From an uncultured Candidatus Saccharibacteria bacterium (lineage in GTDB: Bacteria; Patescibacteriota; UBA1384; XYA2-FULL-43-10; 1-14-0-10-43-13): DNA of 64,000 nucleotides. Positions 5,559 to 62,578 of the stretch are shown in pieces. The notes under the pieces were generated by a model. That model was not told the DNA's origin, ran no database searches, and saw nothing but the letters and a program-made list of their open reading frames with translations. A program made the position numbers and the translations under genes. Location: assembly GCA_964543385.1 (NCBI GenBank), contig CAZIYE010000001.1:215868-279867 (forward strand), read 5' to 3'. How positions within the stretch are numbered: the stretch's first letter is position 1; the number at the start of each line of letters is the position of its first letter.

Positions 5559-5637
5559 TTCGATGACTAATTAATATTTTAGTGCTTTATATTTTGTCTG
5601 TCAAATTGTCCCAAAAAACAAAACTATAGAAATAATA

Positions 5638-6015
5638 CTAGTATGGGAAGGGCCCTGGGATCTCCGGTCCCGACATTGGCGTCGCCTCTCCTTGTCTTTG
5701 TGGCCGACTGTTCTCAGGGATATCATTAGTAGCTTGATTTGATTGGCTATCTTGAGAATTGCTTTGATCTTGTTGCACGGTCGCAGAGCTATCTTCCTCC
5801 GGAGATTTTTCTGCCTCCGGCGTAGACTCTGGCGGCATTTCTTCTACGACTGGTACTGGCTGAGGAGATAATTTTTCCTCTTTAGGTTTTTTAATAAAAG
5901 AATATAAAGCAAAACCAGCGATAACGACTATCACAGCCACTACTACAAAATTCATAATCATCCTCAAATTTCTTCTCTTCTCATCCATATGAATAACATA
6001 CATTTTATTTACCAA
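5638..6015 (-). CDS. Hypothetical membrane-anchored protein with Pro/Glu/Ser/Gln-rich tail
   Basis: 125 aa, one TM helix then low-complexity acidic tail. Confidence 0.45.
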   Translation of the reverse strand: MVNKMYVIHMDEKRRNLRMIMNFVVVAVIVVIAGFALYSFIKKPKEEKLSPQPVPVVEEMPPESTPEAEKSPEEDSSATVQQDQSNSQDSQSNQATNDIPENSRPQRQGEATPMSGPEIPGPFPY

Positions 6016-6058
6016 TTCTGAAAGGTAACATGTTATAAAAATTAAAAAAGGATATATT

Positions 6059-6232
6059 GTGCCACCAAAATATATTTGTATTACGGATGACTTCTACACA
6101 GACAATAAAGCAGACGCAATGGATCATATAGACATGCATCCCCGCCATGAAATAGTAGAAATCGTCAGAGACAATCAGGGAACAATTGAGACAAGATTAA
6201 TTAAAGTCGTCTCAGAGAAGAGTCTAGAATAG
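6059..6232 (+). CDS. Possible small protein (57 aa, GTG start), not in ORF track
   Basis: AAAGGA SD 8 nt upstream of GTG; ORF VPPKYICITDDFYTDNKADAMDHIDMHPRHEIVEIVRDNQGTIETRLIKVVSEKSLE. Confidence 0.25.
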   Translation: MPPKYICITDDFYTDNKADAMDHIDMHPRHEIVEIVRDNQGTIETRLIKVVSEKSLE

Positions 6233-7311: not shown

Positions 7312-7388
7312 CGGGGATTAGCGCAGCCTGGTAGCGCGCATCGTTCGGGACGATGAGGTCGTGAGTTCAAATCTCGCATCCCCGACCA
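7312..7388 (+). tRNA. tRNA-Pro (anticodon CGG)
   Basis: Cloverleaf folded by hand: acceptor cggggat/atccccg with C1-G72 (typical of bacterial tRNA-Pro), anticodon loop ttCGGga, T-loop ttcaaat, encoded CCA. Confidence 0.85.
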
Positions 7389-7440
7389 ATTGACAAAGAT
7401 ATAGGCTTTGTTAATATTAAGCGTATGAAGAATTATCGGA

Positions 7441-7500
7441 ATACTATTAACATTAATATAAATCACCCTTCGGCGGCGAATTATTAATGTTAAAAAAATA
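7441..7500 (+). repeat. Perfect 12-bp inverted repeat (ttaacattaata / tattaatgttaa) flanking a 24-nt loop, just downstream of tRNA-Pro
   Basis: seen directly; followed by terminator hairpin. Confidence 0.4.
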
Positions 7501-7511
7501 TTCGATAACAT

Positions 7512-7540
7512 CACCGCCTAAAGGGCGGTTTTTGTTTTTA
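7512..7540 (+). terminator. Rho-independent terminator after tRNA-Pro region
   Basis: caccgcc taaa gggcgg followed by tttttgttttt. Confidence 0.55.
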
Positions 7541-7597
7541 GATAGCTTGGATTAGGTGTTGCCAAATCTAGTCCAATACTGTCTAAGGAGACCGACA

Positions 7598-7930
7598 ATG
7601 ATAATCCAGGGAATAATCCAAAACTTCCTGACCGAACGGGGAGCTTTTGGACAATTGTATCCTGAGCTACCATTTACAATTAACACTTGTGCCGGAACAA
7701 TAAGTATTCCGGACAATCGACTACCGCTAGAGCAACGAAAATCCTACCTCCGTAGAGCAAACCTTTCAAGCAAACCTGTTCTCACCATCGAAGAAAATAC
7801 GATTACAGTGAGAACAGATAAGTTGGAAATATCGCTTACCAGAGATAGTGATATTAGTTGGACTGGCACTATGACAGCCATAGATGCTCGCATTGAGAGC
7901 GATGGCGTAGTTGCCACGGAGACCGGCTAA
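7598..7930 (+). CDS. Hypothetical protein (110 aa), GC-elevated
   Basis: AAGGAG SD 8 nt before ATG at 7598 (ORF track start 7556 is an upstream extension); hairpin 7918-7941 spans the stop. Confidence 0.5.
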   Translation: MIIQGIIQNFLTERGAFGQLYPELPFTINTCAGTISIPDNRLPLEQRKSYLRRANLSSKPVLTIEENTITVRTDKLEISLTRDSDISWTGTMTAIDARIESDGVVATETG

Positions 7931-30973: not shown

Positions 30974-31065
30974 TTTTATCCCTTATAAATTTAGTCTTCT
31001 ACCACTACTTTAGCACTTTAAACCTAGTCAATAAAGTTAGCGCATATTCAACAAAACTAAGCGCT

Positions 31066-31212
31066 TGACAAACATGATGTAATATCATATTATTTATTCA
31101 ATGACAAACAAGACTTTAAAAGTTAGAAGAGAAATCACCCTTTAGCACTTGGGTCTTTTCGCATTTCTAACTTTCCAAAGATACTGCAGCCCAAGTGGCT
31201 GCTTTTTTTATT
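31066..31212 (+). ncRNA. Candidate small RNA: promoter TTGACA-N17-TATTAT, ~110-nt transcript with internal hairpin (agttagaa/ttctaact), intrinsic terminator gcagcc-caagtg-gctgc-T7
   Basis: all elements seen directly; no ORF with SD inside. Confidence 0.3.
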
Positions 31213-55497: not shown

Positions 55498-55929
55498 TCA
55501 CTCCAACTGATAAGAGGTGTAGCCCACCTCGGCGATACGGCGGGGAACGACGTCCCACGAGTTGGGACAGACAGTGCACTGGTAATGACCATTGCTGGTC
55601 ATGATACCATTGTTCGCGCGACACTCAGTGCAGTACCTGTCGGTCAATCGGAACTTCTCACCATTTCCGATAGCATAGGCCGGGAAACGATGCCCGAAGA
55701 TGTTGGGGAATACCGTTCCTCCGAAGAGACGGACGTTGATGTGACCGTCACTGGTTTCTACGAAGGCGTCAGGGATGACCAGCATCCTGAGATGGCGATT
55801 GTGCATCCATGCATTAGTCATTACCAATTCCGGTATGTTAGGAAGACAGTCATTGAAACGCTCCCCAGAGCGAACGATGATCGAGCCGATCGGTTTGATA
55901 CGGCTCTTAGGGCGGTGACGATTCGGCAT
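55498..55929 (-). CDS. Hypothetical Cys-rich protein (CxxC...CxxC), possibly zinc-binding; coding frame uncertain in GC-rich segment
   Basis: 143-aa ORF with CTEC ... CTVC; several overlapping ORFs on both strands so frame assignment is tentative. Confidence 0.3.
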   Translation of the reverse strand: MPNRHRPKSRIKPIGSIIVRSGERFNDCLPNIPELVMTNAWMHNRHLRMLVIPDAFVETSDGHINVRLFGGTVFPNIFGHRFPAYAIGNGEKFRLTDRYCTECRANNGIMTSNGHYQCTVCPNSWDVVPRRIAEVGYTSYQLE

Positions 55930-58145: not shown

Positions 58146-58174
58146 GTTGACAAAATTATCACACTTATATAGTA
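58146..58174 (+). promoter_or_regulatory. Sigma70-like promoter TTGACA-N17-TAGTAT upstream of padR; near-palindrome ATTTATTGATAAAT at ~58240 as possible operator
   Basis: seen directly. Confidence 0.35.
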
Positions 58175-58299
58175 TAAAGATACTAAGACGAGCGAGGGAA
58201 TGCTCATTTTTTAATTTATATATTTTGAAATTTATTCATTTATTGATAAATTGCCAAATAATAAAATGGATGAATGGATAAATAACACGGAGTGTCGCT

Positions 58300-58644
58300 A
58301 TGGATTTGACAAGAGAAGGATACTGGCGAAAATTGATAAATCAGGGTTTGATCAAATTCTTTTTGCTCAAAGTTTTATATAAAGATAAAGAGAGCTACGG
58401 TTATAGAATTGTCAAAAGAATAGAAGAATTATCAGACGGAACATGCCGACCGACCGAATCAACAATTTATCCTGCTCTAGAACAGCTAAGAAAAGACGGC
58501 TATGCGATTACCAGAGAGGTCTCTGCTGGCGCTAGAAAAAGAATAATTTATTCACTTACAGAATCTGGCAGAGCTGCATACAGAGCTGCTGCGAAATCCT
58601 ATGGTGAAATAATACCATTACTGAGAGAATCTATACTTCTCTAA
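58300..58644 (+). CDS. PadR-family transcriptional regulator
   Basis: wHTH core GYRIVKRIEELSDGTCRPTESTIYPALEQLRKDGY. Confidence 0.75.
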   Translation: MDLTREGYWRKLINQGLIKFFLLKVLYKDKESYGYRIVKRIEELSDGTCRPTESTIYPALEQLRKDGYAITREVSAGARKRIIYSLTESGRAAYRAAAKSYGEIIPLLRESILL

Positions 58645-58719
58645 GCTATATCCATTTAAAAAACTTGACATATTTGCTATACTTAAGTAGGTTAGATAAT
58701 TAAAAAAATCAGGAGAAAT

Positions 58720-58767
58720 ATGACAATTGATCCATGTGGTGGCTGCTGCGGCGGCTGCGGTAAATAA
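58720..58767 (+). CDS. Tiny Cys-rich peptide gene: MTIDPCGGCCGGCGK (15 aa)
   Basis: Canonical SD AGGAG 6 nt upstream of ATG; stop followed 8 nt later by terminator; 5 Cys in 10 residues. Confidence 0.35.
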   Translation: MTIDPCGGCCGGCGK

Positions 58768-58774
58768 ATAAAAA

Positions 58775-58801
58775 AACCTCTGAGAAATCAGAGGTTTTTT
58801 T
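58775..58801 (+). terminator. Bidirectional terminator cctctga-gaaat-cagagg + T7
   Basis: seen directly. Confidence 0.55.
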
Positions 58802-59369
58802 ATTCCAAACAATTTACTATAGATTCGTATTTATTTTTCATCATTTTTTTTGCTTGCAAACTCATTTTTGACCAACTTCTTTGGACTTTCTTCAAAACCC
58901 AATCTGAACCTTCCTCTATGCTAAGTCCCTTTTCAACATATGCAAGATAAAGCAGTGATTTAAAGTTTTCGATATGTGCCATTGCATCAGCATCAGCTAC
59001 AACTTGTTCTTCCAAAATTGTTTTTTCAACATTTACACTGCCTCGATGAGACAATATGCACTTTTTTACTAATTCAATTTTTTCTCTAGGATAATTATAC
59101 TGACTCAACAGTTCATCGGCCATTCTAGCACCTTCTATGTGGTGGGTATCGGCGAATTTTCCGTTTGAAATTGCAGCATAATCATGCAAAAGACAAGCAA
59201 TCTCTATCAACTCAACGTCCAATGAAAGCTCTTTTGCTAGTTTTTTACCAAAAAAGACTACCGTCTTAACATGATAATCCCAATCTGCTGGTCCGTAGAT
59301 ATTATTTGGCGATTGACAAGCTTCCCATACAATCTTTTCAATCGATTTTGAAAGATTTTTGTTCTTCAT
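58800..59369 (-). CDS. HD-domain phosphohydrolase
   Basis: HD motif LLHDYAAIS, additional His/Asp ligands. Confidence 0.7.
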   Translation of the reverse strand: MKNKNLSKSIEKIVWEACQSPNNIYGPADWDYHVKTVVFFGKKLAKELSLDVELIEIACLLHDYAAISNGKFADTHHIEGARMADELLSQYNYPREKIELVKKCILSHRGSVNVEKTILEEQVVADADAMAHIENFKSLLYLAYVEKGLSIEEGSDWVLKKVQRSWSKMSLQAKKMMKNKYESIVNCLE

Positions 59370-59747: not shown

Positions 59748-59754
59748 AAAATAT

Positions 59755-62578
<2,824 letters not shown>

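Follow-up and report, generated by a model that had tools for sequence, protein, structure and literature searches.

A padR-linked micro-gene for a Cys/Gly-rich peptide in Patescibacteria and its possible metallothionein-like function

The micro-gene and its relatives

The subject of this work is a stretch of 64,000 nucleotides (hereafter the window) from contig CAZIYE010000001.1 of an uncultured Candidatus Saccharibacteria bacterium and, within it, a 15-codon open reading frame (ORF), here called the micro-gene, that lies downstream of the gene for a PadR-family regulator. A first-pass annotation, made from the sequence without database searches, had proposed that this ORF is a stand-alone gene for a Cys-rich peptide, set between padR and a convergent gene for an HD-domain protein. 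Pfam matches to both neighbours confirmed the setting, and the features of the locus are collected in Table 1. As can be seen, the ORF is preceded by a Shine-Dalgarno (SD) sequence and followed by an intrinsic terminator, both of which had been recognized in the annotation. Five cysteines had been claimed for the product; the sequence gives four, at positions 6, 9, 10 and 13, with the spacing C-x2-C-C-x2-C. The peptide has 15 residues, or 14 if the initiator Met is lost before Thr.

Table 1. Features of the micro-gene locus and other sites mentioned in the text (window positions).
Feature	Position	Strand	Details
padR promoter-like site TTGACA-N17-TAGTAT	58147-58175	+	promoter scan, 10/12 matches
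padR leader box TAAAGATAC-N3-GACGAGCGAGGGA, then small hairpin and T-run	58176-58212	+	directly 3' of padR promoter
Leader-box hairpin	58190-58205		terminator scan
AT-rich short tandem repeats	58213-58284	+	form long imperfect inverted repeats
Near-palindrome ATTTATTGATAAAT	58238-58251		within the AT-rich repeats
Hairpin ACAC-GGA-GTGT holding padR SD	58285-58295	+	SD (GGAG, 58289-58292) in loop and 3' arm
padR	58300-58644	+	114 aa; PF03551, 67.2 bits vs cut-off 27
Codon of PadR Cys49	58444-58446		lone cysteine just N-terminal of recognition helix
Spacer promoter-like element TTGACA-N7-TGcTATACT (extended -10)	58665-58683	+	promoter scan scores TTTAAA-17-TATACT with TG
SD AGGAG	58711-58715	+	4 nt 5' of ATG; read from sequence
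Micro-gene	58720-58767	+	ATG 58720-58722, TAA 58765-58767; 15 codons and stop; product MTIDPCGGCCGGCGK
Possible small hairpin in Cys/Gly codons	~58739-58758		RNAfold
Two-way intrinsic terminator	58770-58801	both	A7-CCTCTGA-GAAA-TCAGAGG-T7
Terminator parts			A7 58770-58776; CCTCTGA 58777-58783; loop GAAA 58784-58787; TCAGAGG 58788-58794; T7 58795-58801
HD-domain gene	58800-59369	-	PF01966, 50 bits; convergent with micro-gene
5S and 23S rRNA genes	59753-62574	-	beyond HD gene
TTGACA 7 nt before TATA-type hexamer	5586-5604	-	
TTGACA 7 nt before TATA-type hexamer	31065-31083	+	
143-aa ORF	55498-55929	-	no Pfam match

The A-run of the terminator starts 2 nt 3' of the stop codon of the micro-gene, and the stop codon of the HD gene (58800-58802) falls within the T-run. 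In RNAfold predictions, the terminator hairpin is the dominant structure, and the 171-nt region folds with z = -3.6 relative to shuffles. The repeat reads as a terminator of the padR/micro-gene transcript and, on the opposite strand, of that of the HD gene. A generic terminator scan of the window did not pick it up, in our opinion because extension of the stem by the A-run and the T-run probably consumes the T tail.

The degenerate pattern for CGGCCGGC matches the window once, and none of 100 shuffles matched it, even when two mismatches were allowed. A six-frame scan of the 64 kb retrieved only four ORFs of 8-60 amino acids with at least four Cys and at least two CxxC; among these, the micro-ORF is the only one in which Cys and Gly predominate and whose SD is of the canonical GGAG type.

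We collected 116 loci with PadR orthologues from contigs of database homologues, species-representative genomes (30 loci) and metagenomes (77 loci). These loci were gathered through PadR and all belong to one lineage; landfill, groundwater and lake material was among their sources. About 40 distinct Cys/Gly-rich micro-ORFs of 12-62 codons were found downstream of padR on the same strand, for example those encoding MSIEPCGGCCGGCGK, MTDPCGGCGSCGGC, MGPGCGGCGNCG, MYDPNGGCEGCDGCGCC, MILGGCGSCGGCGGGCATDENNG, MLRFGCDCDGCPGCGTEEETK and MSDEKDPKKPADEQTEGCGPCCDKCGCGCGPEDEEQEDK. Of 37 distinct peptides, 35 are encoded by ORFs with a GGAG, AGGA or GAGG sequence in the 18 nt that precede the start codon, and the ORF is followed by a hairpin with a T-run in 25 of 27 distinct loci. 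For 68 distinct loci, 300 nt or more of DNA was available 3' of padR; a micro-ORF was found within 300 nt of padR in 30 of them and within 2.7 kb, on the same strand, in nine more, while one further adjacent member of the family, MSDPCGGGSCGGGCCG, escaped the CxxC filter. Of the 35 loci in the clade defined by a PadR identity of 80% or more, 29 carry the micro-ORF (30 with the member that the filter missed). ORFs that satisfy the strict criteria occur elsewhere in the same loci at ~0.02 per kb per strand, and the downstream stretches of 102 loci contained 32 of them, compared with ~1 expected.

Comparison of the window with its three closest relatives revealed that the SD and the ORF are kept, that the indels are of single codons and maintain the frame and that the Cys/Gly core differs by third-position (synonymous) changes only. 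The stems of the terminators differ among these relatives, yet they are always complementary. In seven close pairs, we counted 19 synonymous and 20 non-synonymous differences, which corresponds to a ratio of non-synonymous to synonymous differences per site (pN/pS) of 0.31 in a small sample of non-independent pairs. Over the whole family, the Cys pattern (mostly CxxC) is kept while peptide length and DNA diverge. The preference for the TGC codon (0.76 in micro-ORFs vs 0.72 in padR of the same loci) adds no signal.

The proposal of a stand-alone micro-gene missed by annotation is thus borne out by the homologous ORFs, the frame-keeping indels and the pN/pS value; the conservation with synonymous variation is evident, and frame-disrupted copies in conserved DNA were not seen. 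A chance ORF is ruled out by the conservation together with the background counts. From the comparative data, the 15-codon ORF is very probably a real translated gene. Judged by the loci collected here, the family is lineage-restricted, being found in Berkelbacteria and related Patescibacteria.

The layout of the locus resembles that of the thrL and pheL leader peptides, where a short ORF (~15 codons) that favours one or two amino acids is closely followed by an intrinsic terminator, and the Cys/Gly codons of the micro-ORF can form a small hairpin of their own. One can therefore imagine that no protein product matters; the element would be either a leader or attenuator that senses the supply of Cys- or Gly-tRNA or, within the 3' untranslated region of padR, a GC-rich hairpin that acts as RNA and contains an ORF by coincidence. 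Rfam models of Thr_leader and Phe_leader do match below threshold (29.3 and 27.4 bits, respectively, with gathering at 55), which is explained by the generic arrangement of a small ORF plus a terminator; nothing in Rfam reached the gathering score. Unlike thrL and pheL, the micro-gene has no downstream operon, and RNAfold predicts independent hairpins only, with no antiterminator pairing. The genes past the terminator differ by locus, none that is co-directional being conserved, and in the window the next gene is convergent, which upholds the view of the first-pass annotation that the ORF is not a leader peptide. Despite nucleotide change and a 5-fold range of lengths, the family retains its reading frame, start codon, SD and Cys pattern, and the pN/pS value also points to selection on a protein. 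We consider an RNA-only element or attenuator extremely improbable and reject it on the comparative data, the fold, the downstream genes and the Rfam scores.

Linkage to padR and expression

The association with padR was recovered in the opposite direction as well. A profile of the long forms was used to search 5.8 billion protein clusters (word-indexed search) and 1.84 billion representatives (exhaustive search with a hidden Markov model). Nine proteins were returned, all of the same micro-family and either unnamed or called "hypothetical protein", and the six that were examined (P0121, P0123, P0125, P0127, P0128 and P0130) all lie 80-113 nt 3' of padR on the same strand. The exhaustive search retrieved no known family, only the micro-family, and the short forms are absent from the collection of 5.8 billion clusters. 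The placement of the peptide next to PadR is thus supported by tight linkage in both PadR-led and peptide-led searches. The accompanying suggestion that PadR might bind the near-palindrome ATTTATTGATAAAT fared worse: conservation of this sequence fails already in L010 and L040, the closest relatives, which leaves it unsupported as an operator. No other PadR operator was found; inverted repeats of the GTAT...ATAC type near the padR -10 element are too short and AT-rich to score.

A terminator separates padR from an adjacent micro-ORF in only one of 27 distinct loci, and the shortest gaps between the two are 39-41 nt (L021 and L048). Since, as a rule, no terminator intervenes between padR and an adjacent micro-ORF and the gap can be short, a shared transcript is most likely, and we believe that the two genes are probably co-transcribed. 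The apparent shared transcription unit suggests, in turn, that the micro-gene is controlled by PadR.

Intervening genes, for a cupin, an IS3-type transposase pair and PspC-like and TolB-like proteins, separate padR from the micro-gene in about ten loci, and the SD and terminator are still kept. It follows that the micro-ORF can also act as an independent gene. The IS3-type pair has entered the padR-to-micro-gene interval in L063 and L068 (3600-4810); in L080 and L089, this interval holds genes for PspC-like and related membrane proteins on the opposite strand.

Composition of the peptides and their possible functions

The composition of 40 family peptides was calculated with Met1 left out. Gly (27.5%) and Cys (20.8%) are followed by Glu (10.5%), Asp (9.4%) and Pro (6%); acidic residues together make up 20%, and the net charge ranges from 0 to -14. 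Aromatic residues are scarce (~1% Phe plus Tyr, no Trp), as is His (0.4%): nine peptides have one or two aromatics and three have a His. There are 3-6 Cys per peptide, most often four. Among 138 gaps between neighbouring Cys, CxxC accounts for 78, CC for 27 and CxC for 20, and 27 of the 40 peptides contain CxxCxxC. The short forms start with M-[TS]-(I)-D-P or M-G-P and have 3-5 residues before the first Cys, while in the long forms the core is flanked on both sides by acidic, lysine-containing tails. No hydrophobic segment or signal peptide was found in the family peptides, which are taken to be soluble. An AlphaFold2 model of a 41-aa member had a mean confidence score (pLDDT) of 54 and no secondary structure. 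When ten members of at least 20 aa were scanned against Pfam and NCBIfam at E <= 10, nothing significant was found; the near-hits were compositional, namely FeoB_associated (E = 0.7), DUF6587, ArrB (E = 0.32) and a peptide of the MNIO class (E = 1.1). The literature yielded nothing specific on a PadR-linked Cys-rich small protein, Patescibacteria metallothioneins or metal sensing by PadR.

The reading we favour, and hold with moderate confidence, is that the family comprises minimal metallothionein-like peptides that would bind soft metals and be expressed with PadR and under its control. The micro-gene would be transcribed as the second cistron of the padR mRNA, which would end at the terminator just 3' of it; in the clade of the window, the promoter-like element in the spacer could provide an additional start. 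The level of the peptide would then follow the signal answered by the PadR repressor. The apo-peptide would be unstructured, and its four (range 3-6) closely placed thiols in CxxC, CC and CxC would bind Zn(II), Cu(I) or Cd(II), possibly in an oligomer, so that a minimal metallothionein-like buffer or sink is formed. The peptides have the low mass, the high content of Cys in CxC, CxxC and CC and the near absence of aromatics and His by which metallothioneins are recognized; the high metal content with metal-thiolate clusters that also defines metallothioneins is here a prediction. The lack of a fold in the AlphaFold2 model is as expected of a metal-free thiolate peptide. The peptides vary freely in length and in the number and spacing of their Cys, a behaviour more in keeping with a loose thiolate chelator than with a precise site. 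For CxxC peptides, a 50-100-fold stronger binding of Zn2+ than of Fe2+ was reported (PMC11339926).

Metallothioneins and the micro-family have in common a very small size, a Cys content of 20-30% in CxC, CxxC and CC, an abundance of Gly and Ser, few aromatics or His and no fold without metal. The copper metallothionein of Neurospora crassa, of ~25 aa and rich in Cys, Gly and Ser, is a very small fungal example. The micro-family differs in that it has no detectable sequence relationship to metallothioneins, comes down to 12 codons with only 3-6 Cys, is bacterial and is fixed behind padR, its metal binding being predicted. By its sequence features, it would function most like a metallothionein, yet it belongs to no known metallothionein family. 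What is new here is a non-homologous, far smaller, PadR-linked family missed by annotation.

Several points weigh against a metallothionein-like role under PadR control. The proposed metal binding derives from composition, and no metallothionein family in Pfam or NCBIfam matched the ten scanned members at E <= 10. Four thiols within 8 residues are insufficient for a metallothionein-type cluster, so the peptide would have to form oligomers. The conserved neighbours, fpg and a HAD hydrolase gene (both upstream), include no gene for a metal transporter or metal sensor, and to our knowledge PadR proteins are not classical metal sensors. No copy of the micro-gene was seen within the available DNA in ~40% of the distinct padR loci, and in the ~10 loci with intervening genes the micro-gene must be expressed alone. 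Finally, since we deal with a single lineage with conserved synteny, part of the linkage to padR could reflect inheritance rather than function.

The host organisms are anaerobic, and the frequent CxxCxxC arrangement admits a different ligand: a Cys-x2-Cys-x2-Cys(-x1-3-Cys) core could, in a monomer or a dimer, ligate a cluster of the [4Fe-4S] or [2Fe-2S] type, and the peptide would be a tiny ferredoxin-like carrier, a cluster store or a sensor of iron or oxygen. The cores CGSCGGCGGGC and CGGCGGCDAGC have the ferredoxin-type spacing C-x2-C-x2-C-x3-C, and CGGPCPDCGGC has C-x3-C-x2-C-x2-C, whereas the peptide of the window and its clade have CxxCCxxC. Short peptides with a full four-Cys site bind iron-sulfur clusters in water, but CxxC prefers Zn over Fe (PMC11339926); the Cys motif of FeoC forms a [4Fe-4S] cluster (PMC8749426). 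The only NCBIfam near-hit of one member, ArrB, is an iron-sulfur subunit, but the match is non-significant, and the Fer4 models of Pfam matched none of the ten relatives scanned. No partner enzyme or iron-sulfur assembly gene is linked, and the free variation in the number and spacing of Cys is a better match for a loose chelator than for a defined cluster site. We regard an iron-sulfur peptide as doubtful.

The small ORFs associated with FeoB carry a GCGGCxxC-type motif that is thought to bind iron or an iron-sulfur cluster, their translation being unproven (PMC8749426). FeoB-associated proteins (PF12669), DUF6587 and the FeoC tail share with the micro-family their origin from small ORFs and a Cys motif, and hits to them are weak and compositional (E = 0.7-9); a DUF6587 protein, P0126, was among the results when the 5.8 billion clusters were searched by word index. 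These proteins, however, have an N-terminal membrane helix and adjoin feoB, while the micro-family lacks any hydrophobic segment. The best score to the FeoB-associated model was 10.6 bits against a gathering value of 27, and feoB is absent from the genes called or annotated around padR and the micro-gene.

Another parallel is provided by synthetic ferredoxin maquettes and "protoferredoxin" (Gly-Cys-Gly)n peptides, which, in the account that PMC11339926 gives of them (its references 15, 69 and 70), bind iron-sulfur clusters in vitro. Their 12-16 residues include four Cys that are set apart by two or three others, mostly Gly, and a natural member of the micro-family, MILGGGGCGGCGGCDAGCG, contains GCGGCGGC. 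The maquettes differ in being laboratory constructs, while the micro-family is known here from genes alone and the window peptide has CxxCCxxC. YqjI/NfeR of E. coli is a PadR-family repressor with a Cys/His-rich N-terminal metal-binding extension. It shares with our locus the association of a PadR DNA-binding domain with a short Cys-rich, Gly-containing segment, which here is a separate downstream gene and not a fused extension. By analogy, the family could be a natural (Gly-Cys-Gly)n scaffold of the protoferredoxin type that binds iron-sulfur or metal and serves as a detachable sensing module of PadR, i.e. the YqjI/NfeR extension split off into a gene of 12-15 codons. We think this quite unlikely; if true, the peptides would be among the smallest functional metalloproteins encoded by any genome.

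In composition, the Gly/Cys-rich core resembles the core of microcin B17, and mccA and pqqA are precedents for stand-alone genes of 7-24 codons that encode precursors. The micro-gene might therefore encode the precursor of a ribosomally synthesized and post-translationally modified peptide (RiPP) with thiazoles (a linear azole of the microcin B17 type), thioethers or other Cys modifications, the maturases being encoded elsewhere in the genome. The weak NCBIfam near-hit to the MNIO-class RiPP peptide (E = 1.1) is non-significant, and no precursor model (linear azole, SCIFF, MNIO) matched. The short forms, such as MGPGCGGCGNCG and MGPCDSCGGGKCC, are too short for a leader peptide, and the long forms, with acidic tails on both sides, do not have a leader-plus-core organization. 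No YcaO, radical-SAM or other maturase is present in the annotated 14 kb upstream, and none is conserved in the related loci; the genomes are judged to be very small from their longest contigs (0.67-0.87 Mb). A RiPP precursor is very unlikely.

Surroundings of padR and significance of the family

The window PadR has the winged-helix domain and the short form (~110 aa, with a single C-terminal helix) that identify family members, and it belongs to the short, LmrR-like subfamily 2; the nearest solved structures are those of LmrR (8qdf and 3f8b, aligned over residues 20-107). It has 143 homologues, with 67-100% identity among those listed. Where source names are given, they are Berkelbacteria, Patescibacteria or unclassified bacterial metagenome-assembled genomes; one homologue bears the automatic name "YqjI". 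From the names attached to near-identical PadR proteins, the organism falls among Candidatus Berkelbacteria/Patescibacteria.

TTGACA and a TATA-type -10 element are kept 5' of padR in most orthologous loci. The leader box that follows contains the 12-mer GACGAGCGAGGG, exact copies of which were found in 31 loci; each of these has a single copy, on the + strand 5' of padR, and the window likewise has only one. With up to two mismatches, the box is present in 33 distinct leaders, 47-213 nt before the padR start. The 3' partner of its hairpin varies and pairs in differing registers, usually with a T-run after it, and a second ACGAGGGA is seen within a hairpin loop in some loci. The leader box looks terminator- or attenuator-like and has no Rfam match. 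Further downstream, the padR SD lies in a hairpin of the design N4-7-GGA/GAA-complement. Of 76 distinct regions upstream of padR, at least 24 show this design, with many different stems, a covariation pattern; GGA in a hairpin loop recalls the binding sites of CsrA/RsmA.

When the AT-rich repeats of the window are paired by eye, G-U wobbles occur on the + strand, an indication of RNA hairpins. Similar repeats occur in the spacers between padR and the micro-ORF in L046, L049, L069, L070, L073 and L007, and the repeat units differ by lineage (for example, GATAAAT, TTAGAAAT and GGATTTC). Eight of 18 spacers between padR and the micro-ORF fold with z < -2, down to -8; the window spacer has z = 0.2. 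Two forms of the spacer promoter-like element are kept, TTGACAnnTnTGnTATAMT (window, L010, L043, L044 and L057) and TTGACAGGnTTGnTATAAT (L104, L019 and L004), the DNA 5' of it being unalignable among these relatives. At two other places in the window where TTGACA stands 7 nt before a TATA-type hexamer (Table 1), a second -10-like hexamer is present at the normal 17-nt spacing, an unusual promoter geometry.

The genes downstream of the locus vary. In the window, the match to 23S rRNA is unbroken (2822 nt spanning model positions 1-2925). L005 has two LAGLIDADG homing-endonuclease genes on the minus strand (5580-6197 and 7344-7835), 1.2-3.5 kb downstream of padR. The stretch that holds them corresponds to the minus-strand 5S/23S rRNA genes of the window, and this positional comparison suggests that the 23S rRNA of L005 may have introns. 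In the annotated region of the window (43.9-59.4 kb), no metal, iron-sulfur or maturase genes were found, only housekeeping genes; the annotated neighbours are a penicillin-binding protein, MraZ, a tRNA synthetase, a glycosyltransferase, RecO, fpg, HAD and HD. The 143-aa ORF of Table 1 has CxxC...CxxC pairs in its 49 C-terminal residues, which are zinc-ribbon-like.

Upstream synteny is kept across the loci: fpg, for repair of oxidised guanine, and the HAD hydrolase gene are conserved and divergent from padR. Cys49 of PadR is invariant in an alignment of 12 orthologues (68-100% identical), one of which, P0071, comes from a locus without an adjacent micro-gene. Together with the high thiol density of the peptides, these facts are compatible with a redox function, in which the micro-gene would provide a gene-encoded low-molecular-weight thiol or a sacrificial sink for oxidants or electrophiles, PadR would sense the same stress, perhaps via Cys49, and the HAD-fpg genes would take part in the same response. 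Synteny within one lineage may, however, be without functional meaning, no thiol-recycling enzyme is linked and a plain scavenger needs no conserved CxxC spacing. We also know of no established case of single-Cys redox sensing by a PadR protein. This function is unlikely.

Genes of 12-20 codons are invisible to standard annotation, and here a conserved family of such size is found in the reduced genomes of Patescibacteria, where each kept gene likely matters. If the peptides bind metals or iron-sulfur clusters, they would be among the shortest natural metallopeptides. Being trivial to synthesize chemically, they would offer a tractable model for how minimal Cys/Gly peptides handle metals in cells, and they would give a first clue to the signal answered by the widespread PadR regulator of Berkelbacteria.

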